A stretch of 64,000 bases of DNA, taken from contig CM000155.2 in the NCBI GenBank assembly GCA_000004695.1, positions 1,824,001 to 1,888,000 on the forward strand, in the 5' to 3' direction. The stretch comes from Dictyostelium discoideum. Lineage: Eukaryota. The position numbers and the translations under genes were made by a program. The notes beneath the pieces are model-generated. The model did not search any database. It was given only the letters and a program-made list of their open reading frames with translations, and was not told where the DNA came from. This document shows positions 6,985 through 22,081 of the stretch, in pieces. How positions within the stretch are numbered: the first letter of the stretch is position 1; each line of letters starts with the position of its first letter.

Positions 6985-9081
<2,097 letters not shown>

Positions 9082-9157: not shown

Positions 9158-9376
9158 AAATATAAAAAAAGATTAAAAAATTAAATAATAAAAAGGTAAA
9201 TTAAAAAATATTTTTTTAAAAAACTAACAATTCATATTATAAAAATAAATTTTTAATTATTTATTTATTAAATGTAAAAGAAATCATAAATTAAATAAAT
9301 TTATATTTTTTTTCAAGTTGATTATTTTACAATGTATATAATTTTTTTACATTTTTGGTGAAATTTCATCAAAAAT

Positions 9377-9449
9377 GCCTGGATGGCTCAGTAGGCAGAG
9401 CGAGCGGCTGTTAACCGCTAGGTCCATGGTTCGATCCCATGTCTAGGCG
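9377..9449 (+). tRNA. tRNA-Asn (anticodon GUU)
   Basis: Cloverleaf structure. Acceptor GCCTGGA/TCTAGGC, anticodon stem AGCGG/CCGCT with loop CTGTTAA, T-arm GGTTCGATCC, discriminator G. Confidence 0.9.
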
Positions 9450-9712
9450 ATACTTTTTTATTTTCAATATCATTTTTTTTTTTATCTTAAAAATGGATTC
9501 TCTACATCGAGACCTTTCAAAATATCAAAAATTCATCAGAATTGGCCAACGTTGAAAAAAGTTAATGCCTTTTTTTTATAATAATTAATTGATTGGTTAA
9601 AAAAAAAAAAAAAGAAATTTTTTTTTTTATTTTCACCATTTCAAAAAAAAAAAAATAAAAAACATATTGGTCTAGATTCAGTGAAATTGTTAAATTAAAA
9701 TATAAAAATAAA

Positions 9713-10839
9713 ATGAATAAAAGAATAAATGAAGTTAGTGGTAGACCTATAGGAGAATATCTTTCAAGAGATATATCAGATTTTCAGAGAGTTTCAAGGA
9801 CACTATTTGAATGTTTTTCATCATTAGCAACAGGTGCAACATTAAATTCCCAACAATTACAACAAATTCAATTACCAATTGATCAAATATCAAATAATGC
9901 AACACCTAATATGGTATTACAATTAATGAATCATTTAATTGATGTTGATAAAATTTATCAAAATACTTTAAAAAAACGTAATAATATTAATAATAATGGA
10001 TTTATATATATTATATTTATATTTTAATAATAATTAATAATTAATAATTTTTTTTTATTTTTTTTTTATTAGTTGAAAAACATCAAAAAATTCAAAAAGA
10101 AATTACAGAAATACAAAAAGAAATTGAAGAAAAAGATAAATTAATATCAACATTAGCATTAAATTTAAAAGATATTGAATCATTTTTAGAGAATGAATTA
10201 TCACAAGACAATGTAAATATAAATAATGGTAATGCAAGTGATGGTATTGTTAATGAGGTTTTAATAGATTTAAAGCAACCAGATGACGCAGCATCAATGG
10301 ATAATATAGTGAATAGAGAGGTATCACCAGAGGATTTAATATCTTATGCACATAAAATTAGTGGTACCACATCTGCACCATTTGGATACCAACCAAATGC
10401 ACCATTGGCTTCACTATTTAAACCACCTGCACCACAAGATGAAATGATGAGATCATCAGTACTCTTTACAAAACCACCACCTCATGTTTTAAAATATTAT
10501 GGTTTAGCTGAAATCGATGTTACAACACCAACAATGGCTGCAAATATTTCTTCACCATTTTCAATTGGTGGTAATGTTGGTGATGTTACAACACCAACTT
10601 CAAAAGAACAAGAAGATCAGCAGCAACAACAACAACAACAACAACCTCAACAACAATTATCACAATCACAACAATCACAACAACAAACTGAATCAGAATT
10701 ACAACCAATTCAAAGTATATTACAACCTCCACAACAATTAAATATAGATTTAGATTTGAATCCAGATTTAGATTCAAGTGGTGATGATGATGATGAAGAT
10801 GACGACGATGAAGAAAGTGAAGAAGTTGAATGGGATTAA
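9713..10839 (+). CDS. med4: Mediator of RNA polymerase II transcription subunit 4 (MED4). Exon 1 9713..9977, intron 9978..10072, exon 2 10073..10839.
   Basis: A GTAATA donor after ...YQNTLKK and a TTATTAG acceptor join the two ORFs (9713..10027 and 10297..10839) in frame. The product has a coiled-coil region (VLQLMNHLIDVDKIYQNTLKKLEKHQKIQKEITEIQKEIEEKDKLIS) and the conserved ISYAHKIS motif, which matches MED4 IIKYAHRIS. It ends in an acidic tail DDDDEDDDDEESEEVEWD, as MED4 does. Confidence 0.75.
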
Positions 10840-10901
10840 AAAAAATAATAAACAAATATATATATTTTTTTTTTTTATTTTTATTTTTTTTTTAATTTAT
10901 T

Positions 10902-11927
10902 TTATTTCTTTTGACCAAAATATTTAACAAACCAAATTATAAATTTATCAATTTTTGAAGATTTTTCAAATGGATTTATAATTTTATTCATTTTTTCTTG
11001 TTCTAATTTATGTTTTTCACCTTGTGATTGATTTGTTGAAACAAAGCCTTCTTCAATATTACGAGTTGGAACATAAACATTTTCAAATGTTTTTTGTTGA
11101 TCATTACTATTATTATTATTATTATTATTATTGTTTATTGATTTTTCTAATCTCTCAATTTCTTTTTCAATTAATGAAATTGATTTTTTATCAACTTCAT
11201 CCATTTTCATTCTTAGAAGAGTTTGTTTCTTTTTTTGTAAAATTAATTTTTGATCATCAAATGTGGTAGTGGTGGTGGTGGTTGGTCTTGCACCAGGTGC
11301 TTTATCAACTATATCTTTACTATTTTCAATGTATTCACTTTTTGATACAAAATAAGGTTCTTTAATTTCCTTTGAACCCAATGGTACATGTGGTAAAATG
11401 AATGCTGATACTCTTCTCTCTTCTTCAGCTAATATATTATAAGTACCAATTGCATTGATTGTTGTCATTGTTTCAACATTTACTTTATAACGAGTTGAAA
11501 TATCTTTTATTAATTGGTCTGGTAATTTTGAATGTGTTGCTCCTGTACCAATTAATAGGAATTCAGTTGGTGGTTCAACGATATCCAAAGTTGCCAATGT
11601 GTCAATGGTAATATCTTCAACTGAATGAACATCCCAGAGGAATAGTTGTTGTGGCATTATATTAATTGATCCTGGTATTAAGGTTTTGTTAATTGAAAAC
11701 CCAGATTCAACATATCCATCAATATTATATACCTTTGATAAATCACCTTGACTCATTTCAAATATATTACCATTGTCAATTCCTTTACAATAATTTCTTT
11801 TAAATATTTTATTTGATTTACCAAAATTTCCCAATTTATTATTATAATTATTACTATTACTATATATTATATTTTGATTTATTAAAATTCCTTTTATATT
11901 TTTTAAATTATAAAAATTTTTAATCAT
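10902..11927 (-). CDS. NDUFAF3-like complex I assembly factor (Mth938/DUF498 domain) with a C-terminal coiled-coil/Asn-rich extension.
   Basis: 341 aa ORF. The core YNIDGYVESGFSINKTLIPGSINIMPQQLFLWDVHSVEDITIDTLATLDIVEPPTEFLLIGTGATHSKLPDQLIKDISTRYKVNVETMTTINAIGTYNILAEEERRVSAFILP aligns motif-by-motif with NDUFAF3 (W.V....DIT.DS...LEP..EI.V.GTG....L......GI.VEV.DT.NA..T.N.L..EGR.V..AL.P). Confidence 0.75.
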   Translation of the reverse strand: MIKNFYNLKNIKGILINQNIIYSNSNNYNNKLGNFGKSNKIFKRNYCKGIDNGNIFEMSQGDLSKVYNIDGYVESGFSINKTLIPGSINIMPQQLFLWDVHSVEDITIDTLATLDIVEPPTEFLLIGTGATHSKLPDQLIKDISTRYKVNVETMTTINAIGTYNILAEEERRVSAFILPHVPLGSKEIKEPYFVSKSEYIENSKDIVDKAPGARPTTTTTTTFDDQKLILQKKKQTLLRMKMDEVDKKSISLIEKEIERLEKSINNNNNNNNNSNDQQKTFENVYVPTRNIEEGFVSTNQSQGEKHKLEQEKMNKIINPFEKSSKIDKFIIWFVKYFGQKK

Positions 11928-12360
11928 CTTTTTTTCTTTATTTGTTGTGGAATTGTGAATTAATTTTTTTTTATATGAAAACTAAAAAACTTTTTTTTTT
12001 TTTTTTTTCGAGAATTGCATAAAAAATAATTTCTTTTTTTTTTTTTTCAAACAACTATTTAATTTTATTTATTTTTCATATTATTCTAGTATAAGTAGAG
12101 AACTCAAAAATACACAAAATTATATAAAAGAATGTTTTTTGAATTTTATTTTTTATTTTTTATTTTTTATAATTGTTTTTTTATTTAGAATAACAACAAG
12201 TAGACAATAAAATTTTATATTATTACTTTTGATTAAAACATCTTTTTTGTCCAAACTTTTTTCTAAATCTTTTTTTATTTTATCGTCGGGTTCGTGATTG
12301 ATGACATATTATAAATAAAAAAATCGGATGACGTTATATTTTTTAAAAAAATAATAAAAA

Positions 12361-12431
12361 GCGTATGTGGTCTAGTGGTATGATGCATCCCTGCCACGGA
12401 TGCGAACTGGGTTCGATTCCCAGCATACGCA
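12361..12431 (+). tRNA. tRNA-Gly (anticodon GCC)
   Basis: Acceptor GCGTATG/CATACGC, anticodon stem CATCC/GGATG with loop CTGCCAC, T-arm GGGTTCGATTCCC, discriminator A. A conserved downstream element ATTTCCGAACTTCGGA lies ~20 bp 3'. Confidence 0.9.
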
Positions 12432-12599
12432 CATCTTTTTTGAAGTTTACAGGATTTCCGAACTTCGGATGGGGTGAAAAATAAAGAATTTTACAAAGTT
12501 TGTCAAAACTGAAAATAAAAACATTTTTTTTGTTTTTCTAAAAAATCAATTAAGTTTTCATTCTTTCAAACAAATACCACATTGTTTTTAATTTGGATA

Positions 12600-13480
12600 A
12601 AATTATAATTTATAGTAAATAATAAAAAAAAAAAAAAAATTGTAAATTATTATTACTAAACTTTTGGACTTGCAAATTTGATAATAGCTCTTGATGTAAT
12701 GTATGATTGTCAAATTATAATTGCAGGTTTGAGTAATAGTTTAAATATTTGATCAGAAATTATCGCTGAAACAATTGTCTCAAATGCTGGTTCACTGAAA
12801 TCAGTATCCAAGAGAGTTATTAGATTTCCATAATTTACACATTTAATCCCCATTCAAGTTTTCTTTGTGGAATCTAAGATTTGAAACAGGTCGTGGAAAA
12901 CTTTATGAACTAGATTCAACAATAAATTTAATAAAAATAATGAAAAAAAAATTAGAAGGGAGATAAATTCCAAATATTTTTTTGTATTTATTTATAAAAT
13001 TTTATAAAATTTTTAGAGTGAAAAATAATAATTTTAAATCAGAAGTTAAACCATTTTATTTTTAGAATTTAATTGTTTGGGAACACTATAATTTACAGAA
13101 CCATATGAATAATTTTTTTCTATTTTTGTCATATTCAAGAGTTGATAGTTTGTACCATTTGTTAATGCCGTCATGATTCCATAAGGGAAGTTTTAGGATA
13201 GGTCATGGTTTATACATATATATACCCATTCAAAGTATTCTTTGTGGAATCTTAAATTTGTGTAGTCTATGTTAACCTCTGACCCTTCTTCATATTTGGT
13301 AGAATTATAGGTGTAATCCTTTTTATAAATTTATTGTTGAATCTAGTCCTCTCGTTGGTCCAATGTTTTCATGAAAAAGAAGTTTTTCGGTTTTGGTCCA
13401 AAATTTAATAATTAAAGAATAGATGAACTAAAGGATCAATTAAAGCATCAGAAACCAATTATATTACCTCATCTCGCCAA
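12600..13480. other. ORF-free, non-AT-rich spacer (~45% GC locally) between the inverted tRNA-Gly pair, with internal direct and inverted repeats. Candidate degenerate mobile-element remnant.
   Basis: Composition departs sharply from the surrounding >85% AT spacer. A direct repeat CCCATTCAAG(T)TTTCTTTGTGGAATCT(A)AGATTTG occurs at 12841..12878 and 13225..13262. An inverted pair GAACTAGATTCAACAATAAATTTA (12907..12930) and TAAATTTATTGTTGAATCTAGTCC (13290..13313) is also present. No ORF over 60 aa. Confidence 0.3.
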
Positions 13481-13564
13481 AAAAGCTGTGAATATCAATT
13501 CAAATCAGACGTACAAATATATTTTTCCGAAGTTCGGAAATTTCGAAGCCATTAAAAAAGGTTT

Positions 13565-13635
13565 TGCGTATGCTGGGAATCGAACCCAGTTCGCATCCGT
13601 GGCAGGGATGCATCATACCACTAGACCACATACGC
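13565..13635 (-). tRNA. tRNA-Gly (anticodon GCC), second copy, identical in sequence to 12361..12431 but inverted.
   Basis: Exact reverse complement of the + strand tRNA-Gly. The same ATTTCCGAACTTCGGA element lies ~25 bp downstream on its own strand (13510..13530). Confidence 0.9.
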
Positions 13636-13695
13636 TTTTTGATATAATTTTGGAAAAAATAACGAAATGCCATTTTTAAAATATTGTGTATAATA

Positions 13696-13749
<54 letters not shown>

Positions 13750-13922
13750 TTTTTTTTTTTTTTTTTTTTAAATATTGATTAATAACAGTTTATCAATTAA
13801 AGGAAATAAACGATATTTTAAAAGTTTTATTTATTGAATTTAATTATTTTTTTTTTGTATAGAAGTTATTCTTTTTTTGATTCGAATTTTTTTTTTTTTT
13901 TCAAAAAAGGGATTTGAACTGG

Positions 13923-13954
13923 TTTTTTTTTTTTTTTTACCTAAAAGCGGTGTA
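13923..13954 (-). mobile_element. Extremely 5'-truncated poly(A) retroelement 3' end: (on - strand) TACACCGCTTTTAGGT + A16, flanked by a ~14-bp target-site duplication GGGATTTGAACTGG (13909..13922 and 13956..13969). It sits 37-50 bp downstream of tRNA-His in the same orientation, consistent with a TRE3-type tRNA-targeting non-LTR retrotransposon remnant.
   Basis: The same 16-nt + oligo(A) block recurs at 46258..46288, downstream of tRNA-Leu. The duplicated flank is itself the B-box-like external B box (GGTCACCAGTTCAAATCCCC on the - strand). Confidence 0.4.
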
Positions 13955-14005
13955 GGGGATTTGAACTGGTGACCTTAGTTTTTTCATTAAAAAAGTGCCG
14001 CGACC

Positions 14006-14076
14006 TGGAATCGAACCAGGGTCAACAGAGCCACAATCTGATGTACTACCACTATACTATCACGGCTTATTGTGAT
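14006..14076 (-). tRNA. tRNA-His (anticodon GUG)
   Basis: The reverse complement folds as a cloverleaf. Acceptor GCCGTGA/TCGCGGC, anticodon stem TCAGA/TCTGT with loop TTGTGGC, T-arm CCTGGTTCGATTCCAGG, discriminator A. There is no encoded G-1, which is normal for eukaryotes. Confidence 0.85.
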
Positions 14077-15573: not shown

Positions 15574-16041
15574 TTTTATTTATTGTTTTATTTTATTGAT
15601 TAATTTAGAAAAAAAAAATATTACAAGAAAAAGGGGTAAAAATAATTATGCTTTCAATCAAAAAAAAAAAATTTAATGTCAAAAAAAAAAAAAAAAAATA
15701 GAAAAATCCCAACAATTTTCAAAAAAATAAAAAAAAAAAAAAAAAATAAAAATAAAAATAAAAAAAAAAAAAGAATTTTCTGTGCCACTTTGTTATATAT
15801 AGTTTAAATTTTTGAGCTAAATGAGAATTTGGAATCGTAAAAATAAAAAAAAATTAAAAAAATGAGGTGGTAAAAAAAAGATAAAAATAAAAAAATAAAA
15901 ATAAAAAATTAAAATAAATTGAAATCAATGGAATTCATTTAAATTATTTATTTTTAATTCTTATTTATCTTTTATTTCTCTTATTTAATATTTTTTCTTT
16001 TAACCTGGTCAAATTCCTTGATTTTTTTATTTGAAATATTT

Positions 16042-16072
<31 letters not shown>

Positions 16073-16388
16073 CTTTTTGAATTTTTTTTTTTTTTTTTAC
16101 CAAAATCAATAAAAAGAACTTGAATCCATTTTATTTTTATTAATGGAACCATTTTTTTTTTTTTTTTGATTTTTTTTGATTTTTTTTTTTTGATGACGTT
16201 ATTTAACAAGACTTTGTTTATTTATAAACAAATATAATAAATTAAATAATTTACTTTTAAATTAAATAAATTAATAATTCTTCGTCGGTTAATAAATATT
16301 TTTTTTCATTTTTTGTTTTTAATTTTTTTTTTTATAAAAATATCTCTTACCTTCACTTTCCCAATTCCTAAAAATATCTATTTTTTTT

Positions 16389-16420
<32 letters not shown>

Positions 16421-16464
16421 TTTTCTTTCAATTTATTATATATTTTTTTTTTTTTTGAATAATA

Positions 16465-17967
16465 ATGAATAATAATATTAAACTTAATGAATTAATTTTT
16501 AATGAAATTGAACCATTATTAATTTATAATTGTTCATTTAAAAGGATATTAGAATTATCATTATTATCAAAATCAATATTTAAAAAAATTCAATATCAAA
16601 TTTCAAATCAACAAAAAGAAATTAAATTTAAACCAGAAATTAATGAATTTTTAAATTATATTTATAATTTTAAAAAAAATGATAATAATAATAAATTTAA
16701 TTCATTTAATGAACCAATAATAAATAATGAATTAATTTCAACAATTTTAAATAATAATAATAATTATAAATTTAAATTAATTCAATTTAAAGAAATTGAA
16801 AATTTAAATTGTATTAATAATAATGGTAGTTATCAAGCAAAACAAAATAATGAAAATATTAAAACCAATTTAAAAAGAATTTGTAAAAATTTAAAAACAG
16901 TTTATTATTCAAATTATTTTCCAATTGATACTTTAGATGAAGATCCAACACTTGATAATTTTTTTAATTTTGAAAAAGTTGAACTTTATTGGGACTGTGA
17001 TGAATCACCACCAGAATCATTCATTGATGAATGTGATAACCAAGATGATTATCAATCATTTAATTACTCATTTGAATTTTTAAAAAGATATAAATCAATA
17101 AAGAAAATTTCAATTAGAACTGTAGATAATGAATCAAATTTACATTTAAAAAATTTAAATAATTTATTTAAAAATATTAATAATATTAATCAATTAAATA
17201 AAATTCAATTCAATTATCAAAATACTTCATATAATTTTTTAATAAATGAAAAATTAAATAATATTAAAAATTTAAATTCATTTTCAATTAGATTAGGTAA
17301 TTTTGGTTTAAATATTATAAACGAAGAAAATGAAGAAAATCAAGAAAATGAAGATTTGGAAATATTAAATGAAATAATTAATAATAATTGTGAAAATACT
17401 TCTAAATTAATTGAAATTATTTTTAAAAATATTAACTTATTAAAAAATAATAAATTAAGGAAATTAATAATTAATAAATGTCATTCTGATGATAATGAAT
17501 TTAATTCACCAAATTCAAATAATCCATGTGAATTTTTAAAATTATTATTAAATGAAAATTATTCAATAGAAAATTTAAGAATTTTAGGTTTGGCTGTATA
17601 TGATTTAACTAAATATGATGATTTTAAATTATTATCAGAATTAATTAATAAAAATAATAAAATTAATCAATTAATTACAAATATTCAATCATTTGAACAA
17701 TTTTTAAAACATTGTAATGAAAATAAAAATATTGAAATTTTAAAAATTTCATTAGATAAATATTCAGATAATTTAGAATTATTAAATAATATAAATTGGG
17801 AAAATATTTTAAATTTAATAAATAATAATAAATCATTAAAATCAATTTATTTATATAATAATGATCAATTTGATGAAAATTTACAATTTCTAAATAATTT
17901 AAATTCATTAAAAAATAATAATAATAATAATAATTTAAATATTACAATTTTAAATAATTTTAAATAA
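16465..17967 (+). CDS. Hypothetical Asn/Ile/Leu-rich 500 aa protein with degenerate leucine-rich-repeat-like periodicity. The N-terminus (LNELIFNEIEPLLIYNCSFKRILELSLLSKSIFKKI) is weakly F-box-like.
   Basis: Long uninterrupted ORF in otherwise stop-rich AT DNA. Its 3' third is duplicated downstream at 19193..20882. No confident family assignment. Confidence 0.6.
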   Translation: MNNNIKLNELIFNEIEPLLIYNCSFKRILELSLLSKSIFKKIQYQISNQQKEIKFKPEINEFLNYIYNFKKNDNNNKFNSFNEPIINNELISTILNNNNNYKFKLIQFKEIENLNCINNNGSYQAKQNNENIKTNLKRICKNLKTVYYSNYFPIDTLDEDPTLDNFFNFEKVELYWDCDESPPESFIDECDNQDDYQSFNYSFEFLKRYKSIKKISIRTVDNESNLHLKNLNNLFKNINNINQLNKIQFNYQNTSYNFLINEKLNNIKNLNSFSIRLGNFGLNIINEENEENQENEDLEILNEIINNNCENTSKLIEIIFKNINLLKNNKLRKLIINKCHSDDNEFNSPNSNNPCEFLKLLLNENYSIENLRILGLAVYDLTKYDDFKLLSELINKNNKINQLITNIQSFEQFLKHCNENKNIEILKISLDKYSDNLELLNNINWENILNLINNNKSLKSIYLYNNDQFDENLQFLNNLNSLKNNNNNNNLNITILNNFK

Positions 17968-18217
17968 TTTCCCAAAAAAAAAAAAAAAAAAAAATAAAAT
18001 TATATTTATAGAATTTTTATAGTGCAATTTTTTTTTTTTTCCCAAAAATAATTTCGAGAGAAGACAAAAATAGTAAAAGTTTTGGTTTACCAAGAAAAGG
18101 TAGAGTAACAAAATATTAAAACAAATTAGGAATGACAAATAGAAATTATAATCTTAGGGAACTATGCTCAAAACAAATAATGATATATTTATTTTAATAG
18201 GGTTTTTTAATTGTTTT

Positions 18218-18570
18218 TTAATTTAAACATGGTTCATCTTTAATGTCTATTTTAGAAAAATTTGAGTAAACTAAATCTATGGCATCTTTAAAGGTTTTTA
18301 GGTGGTTCATATTTGAAATTTGTAAATTTAAATTACTATTTTTTTCAATTAATTCCTTTTTTTCTTCTTCTAGTAATGCTTTACCTTGTTCTAATTCAGA
18401 TTTAACTTGACTTAATTTTTTTATATCACATCCCAAATCTGATATTTCCTTTTATTAATCAAATTCTTTGCAAAAATAATAGAATCACCTTCTTTTGAAT
18501 TTAAATTACGATTCCAACCACGTGGTCTATCTGGAGTTACTCTATTTACTAAATCATCAAAATCTTCCAT
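18218..18570 (-). CDS. Possible small coiled-coil protein gene. Exon 1 starts at ATG 18570 (MEDFDDLVNRVTPDRPRGWNRNLNSKEGDSIIFAKN...). The downstream ORF 18218..18436 (..DIKKLSQVKSELEQGKALLEEEKKELIEKNSNLNLQISNMNHLKTFKDAIDLVYSNFS..) is in another frame, so an intron is implied but the splice sites are unresolved.
   Basis: Two adjacent GC-richer open frames on the - strand. Only a non-ATG (TTG) start exists for the second ORF. Confidence 0.25.
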
Positions 18571-18700
18571 TTCTAAATATTATTTAGTTTTTTTTTAAAA
18601 AAAAATTTATATCAAAAAATAAAGATTTCAAAAAAAATTGATCAAAATTTTTTTAAAATTTTTGAAAATTTTTTAAAATTTTTGGAAAATTTTTTTACAT

Positions 18701-18898
18701 AATTTTTACATAACATTTACATTTAAATATTATTTAATATATAGTTATTAAAAAAAAAAAAATGAATTTTAAAGAGCAGAGGCTTCAACATTATAAAATT
18801 TCTAGTGTTCTACCTTTTTCCACTTTTGTAAAAAAAGGGGTATTTTTTAATAACTATATATTAAATAATATTTAAATGTAAATGTTATGTAAAAATTA
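18701..18898. repeat. Perfect ~55-bp inverted repeat (arms 18701..18756 and 18843..18898, AATTTTTACATAACATTTACATTTAAATATTATTTAATATATAGTTATTAAAAAA) around an ~85-bp spacer. Hairpin or MITE-like structure.
   Basis: The arms are exact reverse complements on direct reading. Confidence 0.7.
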
Positions 18899-19047
18899 AT
18901 TTCCTTTCCTTTTTTTTAATAATTTCCATATTAAAATAACATTTTAATAAAATTACAAATTTCAAAATAAAAAAAAAAAAAAATAAAAAACAAAAAAAAA
19001 AAAAAAAAAATAATAATAATAATGATAGTATAAAATTTCTTTCTATG

Positions 19048-19120
19048 TAACTATTTGTAAAATAAACTTTTCAAATAAATTAAAATTATTTATTTGAAAA
19101 GTTTATTTTACAAATAGTTA
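19048..19120. repeat. Perfect 33-bp palindromic inverted repeat TAACTATTTGTAAAATAAACTTTTCAAATAAAT / ATTTATTTGAAAAGTTTATTTTACAAATAGTTA with a 7-bp loop.
   Basis: Exact reverse-complement arms. Confidence 0.7.
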
Positions 19121-19192
19121 AATAATTATTTTAATGTATATTTTTCAAATTAATTATTTTTAAAATTGGAAGCTTGGCCCAGAAATTATATT

Positions 19193-20882
19193 TTTTGGTT
19201 TAAATATGATAAATGAAGAAAATGAAGAAAATGAAGATTTGGAAATATTAAATGAAATAATTAATAATGTGAAAATACTTCTAAATTAATTGAAATTATT
19301 TTTAAAAATATTAACTTATTAAAAAATAAAAATAATAAATTAATAATTAATAATTGATAAAGAAATTAATAATTAATAAATGTCATTCTGATGATAATGA
19401 ATTTAATTCACCAAATTCAAATAATCCTGTAACAACTGGTGGTCGGTTTCATCAGTGTTAGTTTTTCCTAATGATTTTTTTATTGTGTTGGTTATTGCTG
19501 CTGAAGTTATTGGTGTTGTAATGTTTGGGTGATGATGGTGGTGTTGAATGGTTATTTAATTGTTGTTGAGATTGTTGATTTATTAATTGAATGTGTTGTT
19601 GAAGAAGTTGATTTTGTTTATCTATTACCTGCTGATGTTCCCTTATTTGACGTTGCTGTTCATTGAATGTTGATACCTTTGGTTGTTGTTGTTGTTCCTC
19701 ATTATCCTGTTGTTGAGATTCATTATTATCAATATCTTCATTATTATTATTGTTGTTATTATTATTATTATTTGACATTCTTTTAAAATAAATTATTTAA
19801 TAAAATTGGGTTATTTATTATTATTAATTTAATTTATTGTTTTAATATTACTGAATTTATTTATTTTATTATTATAAAAATAAATGATTAATTATTTAAG
19901 AAATAAATGTACACATATATTTAATTGATGACCATATCCCTATCGCGTTTTTATTATTTTTAACTATTTATTACTGAGGTTAAATTAGAAACCTAGTTTC
20001 TTTTTATAGTCCTCAGATTTGAGCGAACTCAAATCTGTTAACTACTCCAACCTCAGCAGATAGGGTTAGATCCAATTTAAACTACAATATTATATTATTT
20101 TAATTTTTAATTAAATTATTTTTAAATTTATATTATTATTTTATATGATGATTTTGTGTGTGTGACATTTTTAATATCTGGTATATAATATCTATTGTGA
20201 AAACTTTTTTTTATTATTTTCTGAATTGTGTGTGTTATAATAAAATGTTTAAACAAAACTATATTCTAAATTATTATTATTTATTTTTTTGAATTATTAT
20301 TTAGTTGTGTTTAGTGAGTTTATTATATAAAATGAAACAATTTATTAAAATAAATTAAGTTAGTAATAATTAATATTGAATTATTAATTCAATATTAATA
20401 GTTATTTTTAAATGTTCTGTTTAGAACATTAAATGATAATTATTCAATGGCAAATTAAAGAATTTTATTTTTAGCTGTATATGATTCAACTAAAAATGAT
20501 GATGATTTTAAATTATTATCAGAGTTTATTAATAAAAATAATAAAATTAATCAATTTGTTACACATATTCACTCATTTGAACAATTTTTAAAACATTGTA
20601 ATGAAAATAAAAATATTGAAATTTTAAAAATTTCATTAGATAAATATTCAGATAATTTAGAATTATTAAATAATATAAATTTGGAAAATATTTTAAATTT
20701 AATAAATAATAATAAATCATTAAAATCAATTTATTTATATAATAATGATCAATTTGATGAAAATTTACAATTTCTAAATAATTTAAATTCATTAAAAAAT
20801 TATAATAATAATTTAAATTTTAAAATTTTAAATTTAAATAATTTTTAAAAAAAAAAAAATTATATTTATAGAATTTTTATAG
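19193..20882 (+). pseudogene. Degenerate partial duplicate (~90% identity) of the 3' ~720 bp of the 16465..17967 gene. Two blocks, 19193..19427 (matching 17302..17525) and 20441..20882 (matching 17561..18022), are split by a ~1.0 kb insertion (19428..20440) that replaces 35 bp of the parental sequence.
   Basis: Direct alignment by eye. Long shared strings include GAAGATTTGGAAATATTAAATGAAATAATTAATAAT, TGTCATTCTGATGATAATGAATTTAATTCACCAAATTCAAATAATCC and the whole ...CATTGTAATGAAAATAAAAATATTGAAATTTTAAAAATTTCATTAGATAAATATTCAGATAATTTAGAATTATTAAATAATATAAAT... block. ORF 20559..20792(-) is a near-copy of ORF 17675..17908(-). The copy lacks the 5' 840 bp and the start codon. Confidence 0.6.
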
Positions 20883-20976
20883 CCATAATAATTTGTTTTT
20901 TTTTTTTTTTTTCCTCGTTTTAAAGTTCTTAAAATTTATTTAACCAAGAATTAAAAAATTTTAAAATAAAAGGAAT

Positions 20977-21019
<43 letters not shown>

Positions 21020-21103
21020 CGTTTAAAAGTTTCTTGTTTTTTTATTTTTATTATTTTATTTTTTTCGGAACTGAAATAAAAAACAAATAAAAAAAAAAAA
21101 AAT

Positions 21104-22081
21104 ATGAATAATGTTAGCGATGAAGAAATAGATGATGTTTCAGATGATTATGTTGGTGAGAAGCCAAAGAATGACGAGGATTTTTATAGTGCAGATAGTG
21201 ATATTGAAAAGTTAACTCACAAAAACGAGGATGACATCGAACCAAATCCTTCACTCTCTCAAAAAGATGATGAAAAAATACAAAAACAACAACAACAACA
21301 GCAACAGCAACAACAACAACAACAACAACAAAGTAAAGATATTAGCATCAATTTGGACGAATATCAACAAGAAACAGATAGTGAGGAGTATGATTCTGAT
21401 TATATCGATGATATGGATTCTGACGAATATGAAGAAAAGTGTGAAAATGATAGAGAAAAAGACAATTTATATGAATTAGAAAATGAAGAAAGAGATGAAA
21501 AATTTGGTATTGAATACATTAATACCAATACTGCAAATAAAAATAATAATAATAATAATAATAACAATATAGTGGAAGTTTCACTATATGAAAGATTACT
21601 AAAAAGAGATTTCAATAGATACAATAAAAGTGATATAAACACTAAAAATAATATAAATAATAAAAATAATATTAATAATAATAATAATAATAATAATAAC
21701 AATAATAATAATAATAAAAGAAAAGATTTATATATATATAGTAGTAGCGATAAAGAATTAAACAATAATATAATTAAAAGTTCTTTATCTAATCTCTTTT
21801 TCGAAGAAGAGTGTGAGGCTGATAATGAGGAAGAAGAAGATGAAGAAGGTGATGATAAAGGTATTAAACAAAGAATTAAAAGATATCAAGATATTAAAAA
21901 TAGTAAATTAATAATTAAAAGAGCAAAAAGTTTAACACAAGGTATCATATTGGATCCTATCGATCCAACAATTAAAAATAGTTTTCAACAATATCTAATT
22001 CAAAGAGAATTAAAACAAATAAAAGTAAAAAATAATAAAAATAATAGTAATAATGATAGTAATGACGGCAGTAGTAATAAT

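Follow-up and report, generated by a model that had tools for sequence, protein, structure and literature searches.

A lineage-specific partial gene duplication in Dictyostelium discoideum AX4, interrupted by a truncated mobile-element copy

Downstream of the intact gene DDB_G0292612 of Dictyostelium discoideum AX4 lies a second, partial copy of the 3' end of the same gene, in tandem orientation and 1.2 kb from its parent, and this copy is itself split by about 1 kb of foreign DNA. We analysed this arrangement in a stretch of 64,000 nucleotides (the window), which is very AT-rich and contains coding sequence for poly-Asn and poly-Gln; all coordinates are window positions unless a locus label (L001 to L010) is given. 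L001 is the matching locus in the independent assembly GCA_054883475.1, L002 and L005 are the orthologous loci of two other isolates, and L007, L008, L009 (from a fourth isolate) and L010 (with copies L010a and L010b) carry further copies of the element discussed below. The parental segment is denoted A, its downstream copy A', the sequence between them X, and the insert that splits A' is denoted Y:

16465..17967, + strand: parental gene DDB_G0292612, open reading frame (ORF) intact, 500 aa; UniRef name "F-box domain-containing"
17301..18022, + strand: A, the duplicated segment of 722 bp: the final 667 nt of coding sequence with the stop codon, followed by 55 nt of 3' flank
18023..19192, no strand: X, unique sequence of 1170 bp that separates A from A', not in L002 or L005
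19193..19427, + strand: left block of A', a pseudogene fragment that corresponds to parental 17301-17526; its final AATCC is the element target
19428..20430, - strand (that of its ORF): Y, truncated mobile-element copy of ~1003 bp; left terminus TGTAACAAC at 19428 intact
20431..20882, + strand: A' right block, matching parental 17550-18022; one in-frame TAA
20449..20572, + strand: cluster of A'-specific substitutions adjoining the truncated element end

The duplication and its absence from other isolates

An original prediction, made from the sequence of the window alone, had described a duplicate of the gene tail at about 90% identity. BLASTN and global alignment bear this out, and identity between A and A' is far from random: 209 of 212 aligned bases are the same in the left block (parental 17301-17526 against 19193-19427), and 430 of 452, plus small insertions and deletions (indels), in the right block (parental 17547-18022 against about 20428-20882). 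Overall, the two copies are ~96% identical by substitutions and ~90% when indels are counted, those of the left block being two deletions (9 and 4 nt) and 23 nt of inserted sequence relative to the parent. The extent of the duplicate had been given as the last ~720 bp of the gene; its 722 bp agree with this length but include 55 nt beyond the stop codon, and what A' lacks is not the 5' two-thirds of the gene but the first 836 of its 1503 coding nt (56%). Similarly, the copy is split as described, but between parental 17526 and 17547 rather than 17525 and 17561, and the insert does begin at 19428 but ends at 20430, after ~1003 bp, instead of at 20440 after 1013 bp.

The same A-X-A'-Y structure is present base for base in GCA_054883475.1, where L001 and the window share 99.7% identity over 21.5 kb. 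As this assembly is independent, the duplicate and its insert are not an assembly artefact. Within 16000-21200, L001 and the window differ only in three homopolymer lengths (at 16388-16401, 18992-18994 and 20979-20987, in runs of 14, 3 and 9 nt), which are probably sequencing-technology artefacts or true hypervariable tracts.

The product of DDB_G0292612 is found as an exact protein in AX4 and in GCA_054883475.1, and has no Pfam match at E<=0.1. Frameshifts and an in-frame stop mark A' as a pseudogene. Three reading frames are needed to follow its left block, which contains several stops; the right block starts after the in-frame TAA and has no ATG, and is then open for 127 codons to the parental stop. 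Of the 13 substitutions specific to A' in this block, 12 are non-synonymous or nonsense. The divergence of A' is also uneven, with ~10% in the 124-bp patch at 20449-20572 against ~0.7% elsewhere; 13 of 17 A'-specific substitutions fall into this patch (binomial P = 2.6e-7), a clustering that suggests localised error-prone repair tied to the adjacent deletion described below, or a gene-conversion boundary. An automatic NCBI gene model in GCA_054883475.1 (132 aa; L001 13417-14381, equivalent to window 19881-20845) fuses element sequence to the right block of A' and looks like an annotation chimera of transposon and pseudogene.

Orthologues of DDB_G0292612 were found by protein search at 95% identity in the two other isolates. 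The L002 and L005 loci are syntenic with the window, carrying Med4, DUF498, ATG27, the DDB_G0292612 orthologue, the next gene, OGG1 and Coq4, and both contain a single gene copy with uninterrupted parental sequence, followed directly by the next gene at a distance of ~210 bp (L002) or 326 bp (L005) from the stop codon. X, A' and Y, together 2.86 kb, are absent from both loci. In the window, A is continuous with the ancestral upstream sequence and is followed by unrelated sequence from 18023, while A' continues into the ancestral downstream intergenic sequence (...TTTTTATAG/CCATAATAATTTG) common to L002. With A joined to the ancestral left flank and A' to the right flank, X is therefore an insertion flanked by a 722-bp direct target duplication. 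This 1.17-kb sequence between the copies, which lay outside the account given in the original prediction, is thus the actual insertion around which the duplication formed.

Since an unrooted pattern of four sequences alone cannot date such an event, the isolates were rooted on 6.8 kb of flanking coding DNA. Sites unique to one sequence number 74 in the window, 82 in L002 and 209 in L005, which identifies L005 as the outgroup. In a four-way alignment of A, A', L002 and L005, 6 sites join A with A' against 1 that joins A with L002, and at 5 sites A alone is derived, with A' retaining the ancestral base. On account of this rooting, the 6:1 site pattern and the five A-only derived sites, the duplication is placed on the AX4 branch, roughly midway along it. 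At the informative A'-specific residues, the orthologues of D. purpureum and D. firmibasis side with A, L002 and L005, so that the A'-specific changes represent decay in A'.

The locus thus combines a colinear direct repeat, a single copy in both sister and outgroup, and the grouping of A with A', as in a lineage-specific tandem-type segmental duplication. The marks of a processed pseudogene, namely a poly(A) tail, an mRNA 3' end, a dispersed site and a short target site duplication (TSD), were not found for A'. A retrocopy origin was rejected in view of the tandem position of A' and its unbroken transition into ancestral downstream intergenic DNA common to L002 and L005.

The insert Y and its element family

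Y has relatives at unrelated loci. Over its whole length it matches L007 8326-7164 and L008 8190-7234, which lie on other chromosomes or contigs; its identity to the copies in L007, L008 and L010 is 89-96%, and in three different flanks the homology breaks off at the same base, TGTAACAAC. These matches identify Y as a low-copy mobile element in truncated form, the full length being ~1.16 kb. The insert had been called unrelated sequence; it is foreign to the gene, but as a repeat that recurs at unrelated loci. Of the origins that had been considered for it, a transposon footprint comes near in that a transposon is involved, but what lies in A' is a truncated element copy, whose intact counterparts have TG...CA ends and 5-bp TSDs.

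The left end of Y adjoins AATCC (parental 17522-17526). On its right side, Y stops at position 1108 of the 1163 positions of the element and lacks the last 55 bp, by which other copies extend further, ending in ...CTTGTTACA. A' resumes at parental ~17547, and Y is thus without one TSD copy and without 20 bp of target; the right junction shows a 3-nt microhomology, ATT. A single deletion of ~80 bp explains the loss of the right terminus (55 bp), of one TSD copy and of the 20 bp of target. With these parts missing, neither terminal repeats nor a TSD are visible at Y, as had been correctly noted. Within Y, we distinguish the following features:

19458..19778, - strand: element-borne Gln/Asn-rich ORF, 106 codons in the window copy
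19972..20058, no strand: strongly folding element core, 87 nt, three stems, including the 10-bp hairpin at 20014-20037
20411..20430, no strand: palindrome AATGTTCTGTTTAGAACATT, which every copy of the element contains in its interior; its 3' edge marks one end of the truncating deletion

The 106-codon ORF and the two palindromes, at 20014-20037 and 20411-20430, had all been recognised in the sequence and are present, but they are internal features of the element rather than products of the junctions. In the window copy, a 1-nt insertion near 19518-19529 shifts the frame of the last 25 codons of the ORF relative to the family frame, which shows that this copy has decayed. The hairpin CAGATTTGAGCGAACTCAAATCTG at 20014-20037 is likewise internal to every element copy. 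The fold of the surrounding core stands out against shuffled sequences on both strands (z = -6.5 and -7.3), and the 10-bp stem is invariant in 5 copies while its tetraloop varies (CGAA, TAAT, CAGA). The consensus fold of the core showed no compensatory change, with a double change in 0 of 31 predicted pairs. A tRNA or other known structured RNA at 19972-20058 was rejected, there being no ARAGORN match, no Rfam match (gathering threshold, E<=10) and no covariation.

A protein search showed that the Gln-rich ORF has paralogues in the AX4-type genome, and two more loci emerged from an exhaustive profile search: L009, with a full copy (~82% identical), and L010, with the near-full L010a and the rearranged L010b. 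The unit is 957-1197 bp long (1163 bp in L007) and has the ends 5'-TGTAACA...TGTTACA-3'. The termini are TGTAACAA...TTGTTACA in L007 and L008, and TGTAACA...TTACA with small changes in L009 and L010a. All four complete copies are flanked by perfect 5-bp TSDs, for each of which the probability by chance, estimated from base composition, is ~0.004:

L007 copy: TSD AAACT, perfect over 5 bp
L008 copy: TSD CAATT, perfect over 5 bp
L009 copy: TSD GAATA, perfect over 5 bp
L010a copy: TSD ATATG, perfect over 5 bp

The terminal inverted repeat (TIR) comprises 8 bp only. No long TIR was detected between the left 300 bp and the reverse complement of the right 300 bp (score 27; shuffle mean 20.7, maximum 30), nor were internal direct repeats detected between the left and right 500 bp (score 57; shuffle mean 53, maximum 72). 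The ORF encodes 106-143 aa (in L007 it lies at 8001-8432) of Gln-rich, coiled-coil-like sequence with no domain in Pfam, and the element contains no integrase ORF. Over the 87 codons compared between L010a and L009, 25 differences are synonymous and 16 non-synonymous (ratio of non-synonymous to synonymous differences per site, pN/pS, 0.16; P = 1.7e-8); by this measure, the element ORF is under purifying selection between subfamilies and is a real coding sequence. In the other full-length copies, no stop interrupts its frame before the unit ends, which suggests that the unit is the terminal part of a larger element. Protein searches with the ORF gave only short or chimeric models and no such larger parent element, and the two L010 copies do not flank reverse transcriptase or integrase genes.

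The element ends and the 5-bp TSD bear the signature of a retroviral-type integrase or of a DDE enzyme, and it is from this signature that we infer the enzyme class. TGTNR termini mark both Gypsy long terminal repeats (LTRs) and Ginger2/Tdd transposons; for the D. discoideum elements Tdd-4 and Tdd-5, the TSD is likewise 5 bp long (PMC2836005). With Ty3/gypsy solo LTRs such as those of Skipper-1, Skipper-2 and DGLT-A ("H3R"), the element shares its TG...CA ends, the TGTNR motif, a short terminal inverted repeat of 8 bp, 5-bp TSDs, an asymmetric interior, and dispersed unit-length copies each with its own TSD. It also resembles LTRs in that its ORF starts within the unit and continues past the 3' end of the latter; in yeast Ty1, gag begins in the 5' LTR. 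Given these likenesses, we favour, at about an even chance, the view that the element is the solo LTR of an LTR retroelement, either undescribed or extinct, whose gag-like ORF starts inside the LTR.

Two observations weigh against such an assignment. At ~1.16 kb, the element is longer than any catalogued dictyostelid LTR, all of which span 163-601 bp (390 bp in Skipper-1, 208 bp in Skipper-2; PMC5006619), and a full-length element with two such LTRs, or an internal gag-pol, was not found among the loci compared. Unlike known LTR families, the element moreover carries a protein-coding ORF under selection, and unlike DGLT-A and Skipper-2, none of its copies is near a tRNA gene: a distance of 8 kb around the L007 and L008 copies, and of 5 kb around the window copy, contained none. 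The known D. discoideum LTR families Skipper-1, Skipper-2 and DGLT-A/H3R were accordingly not matched in length and tRNA-gene association, with the length of DGLT-A judged by the 163-601 bp range only. A terminal-repeat retrotransposon in miniature (TRIM), or miniature LTR element, was rejected for want of terminal direct repeats within the unit.

Alternatively, and rather more tentatively, the element could be a non-autonomous one mobilised by an integrase-type transposase. With Tdd-4 and Tdd-5 of the Ginger2/Tdd group it has the host, the 5-bp TSD and the TGTNR termini in common. Tdd elements are 3.8 kb long with TIRs of 260-297 bp (PMC2836005), whereas our element has an 8-bp TIR only and no integrase-like transposase ORF, a distinction drawn from the published descriptions of Tdd elements. 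Relative to Tdd-4 and Tdd-5, it could at most be a non-autonomous passenger.

Some further observations concern the neighbourhoods of these copies. L010 and the window locus share a 2.2-Mb contig, on which they lie ~440 kb apart, and the rearranged copy L010b (L010 7441-8489) consists of element positions 1-188 (8299-8489) beside positions 184-848 in opposite orientation (8166-7441). At L009, gene model P0014 (10001-12825) fuses the element ORF with the C-terminus of a DIRS-type tyrosine recombinase; a link to DIRS elements on this basis was rejected, as the model is chimeric and lies in a DIRS-rich cluster in which the element copy has its own 5-bp TSD. In the window, four tRNA genes are located upstream of the locus at 9376-14066 (4.7 kb), namely Asn-GTT, two Gly-GCC in opposite orientation, and His-GTG; tRNA clusters are typical landing sites of TRE, DGLT-A and Skipper-2 elements in the D. 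discoideum genome.

The intervening sequence X

X has no second copy elsewhere in the window or in any comparison locus retrieved. It contains a small gene and two inverted repeats:

18218..18570, - strand: candidate orphan gene DDB_G0292614, 93 aa; exon 1 18570-18510, intron 18509-18439, exon 2 18438-18218
18700..18898, no strand: perfect inverted repeat with 56-nt arms, 100% complementary, and an 87-nt spacer
19044..19124, no strand: palindrome with 37-nt arms, 97% complementary, and a 7-nt spacer

The intron of DDB_G0292614 is canonical (71 nt, GTAATT...CAG), and the spliced translation equals the database protein (P0010) exactly. The sole match of this protein among 5.8 billion proteins was the protein itself, and a comparison with Pfam gave no significant match, making DDB_G0292614 a candidate for a lineage-specific orphan. 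Perfect arms of the length seen in X are not a product of chance even in AT-rich DNA, and the inverted repeats could represent a hairpin-forming repeat or a small-RNA precursor. thug-S elements have been reported with microRNA hairpins (PMC6161686).

Order of events and competing explanations

We consider it highly probable that the region took shape on the AX4 branch through ordinary mutations, three or four in succession. At the outset, X (1170 bp) would have been inserted just downstream of DDB_G0292612, and the 722 bp of target on its left (17301-18022) would have been recopied on its right. This geometry would correspond to a very long target duplication, in which staggered breaks were filled in around captured DNA; alternatively, replication may have switched template out to X and re-entered 722 bp upstream. 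A would thereafter have stayed within an intact gene, while A', devoid of the 5' half, would have been left to decay. The ~1.16-kb element would then have integrated into A' at AATCC (parental 17522-17526). Finally, an 80-bp deletion with ATT microhomology, ending at the element-internal palindrome, would have removed 55 bp of the element, one TSD copy and 20 bp of A', accompanied by a burst of substitutions in the adjacent 124 bp. Integration and deletion were probably two events, as depicted here, rather than a single aberrant integration.

The first of these steps resembles tandem duplications of the type attributed to fork stalling and template switching or microhomology-mediated break-induced replication (FoSTeS/MMBIR): A-X-A' is a 722-bp direct duplication around 1.17 kb of non-local sequence, one copy of A is continuous with each ancestral flank, and the structure is lineage-specific. 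The defining signature of such products is microhomology at the junctions. Three points weigh against the proposed history as a whole. The mechanism of the first step is conjecture; at Y, which is without a TSD and a right terminus, we infer transposition into A' from one exact terminus and from the behaviour of the family elsewhere; and the uneven divergence of A' could mean that the duplication is older and was partly homogenised by gene conversion.

The second of these points leads to a different view of Y, namely as filler DNA, an element fragment captured during break repair or template switching, perhaps in the same event that generated A-X-A'. Such a capture would account for the lack of a TSD, for the truncation of the right end at element position 1108 with 20 bp of target gone, and for the 3-nt microhomology at the right junction, and the locus already shows one capture-type event in the form of X. 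The left junction, however, falls to the base on the true terminus TGTAACAAC, where four other copies end as well; for a random capture, this would be a coincidence of about 1 in 1000 positions, while a single ordinary deletion accounts for the right side. Y is, moreover, equidistant from all copies (93-96%), favouring transposition from a lost master. We therefore regard filler DNA as an unlikely origin of Y. Somewhat less likely still, in our view, is an A-X-A' structure that predates the split of the three isolates and was lost separately in L002 and L005, with the similarity of A and A' maintained by gene conversion. Direct repeats of 720 bp at a distance of 1.2-2.9 kb are easily deleted by recombination, and gene-conversion tracts could produce the heterogeneity of A', with ~10% divergence in a 124-bp patch against 98% identity over 300 bp. 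With L005 as the outgroup, though, two independent losses would be needed; the 6 sites that join A and A' are spread over the whole repeat, with one inside the diverged patch, against 1 site joining A and L002; no mosaic of A and A' is seen in the single copy of either L002 or L005; and the A'-specific residues are derived, not ancestral.

Two further explanations concern the coding capacity of the copy and the state of its parent, and both had been raised in some form in the original prediction. In the 132-aa product that the NCBI gene caller predicts over 19881-20845 in GCA_054883475.1, and in the 127 codons over which the right block is open to the parental stop, one could see a functional chimeric gene or an exon-shuffling intermediate, with the element supplying promoter and first exon. 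But the right block follows an in-frame TAA and has no ATG, its 12 of 13 non-synonymous or nonsense substitutions form a neutral pattern, and the left block is broken up by frameshifts, all of which makes this idea very improbable and speaks against exon shuffling. That the parental gene instead lost an intron or insert of ~1 kb still kept in the copy is refuted: a GT at the left and a TTTAG at the right junction are reminiscent of splice sites, but splicing there would be out of frame, no interruption is seen in three orthologues and in two more distant ones, and the insert recurs as a dispersed repeat, with TSDs, at loci unrelated to this one.

Beyond these explanations of origin, one may speculate, as a long shot, that a promoter in Y drives a transcript of the minus-strand ORF past 19428 into the left block of A', thus creating an antisense or small interfering RNA source that regulates DDB_G0292612. 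Such a transcript would gain ~235 nt that are ~98% complementary to the DDB_G0292612 mRNA, in a host with active Dicer, RNA-dependent RNA polymerase and Argonaute pathways. To the same speculation, and to be taken together with it at the same low probability, belongs the separate notion that the orphan DDB_G0292614 arrived inside a break-repair insertion, X.

In our preferred account of successive mutations on the AX4 branch, the locus is an ordinary structural variant and an instance of genome decay, not a new kind of system. Its value is mainly local, as it explains three AX4 gene models: DDB_G0292614 as a candidate orphan within an insertion specific to the strain lineage, the Q-rich ORF as a transposon ORF, and the 132-aa model as a chimera of transposon and pseudogene. 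It also supplies a dated structural variant by which the laboratory lineage differs from other isolates of D. discoideum, and defines, for a low-copy element, the ends, the target duplication and the constraint on its coding sequence. Of modest interest, as by-products of this analysis, are an element family that is poorly classified and an orphan gene in a lineage-specific insertion. The element fits integrase-type hallmarks and matches, by their descriptions, no catalogued D. discoideum LTR or Tdd family that was checked. If it is indeed uncatalogued, it points to one more LTR-type lineage, possibly extinct and with terminal repeats that are unusually long and contain an ORF, in a species whose genomic repeats count as well described.

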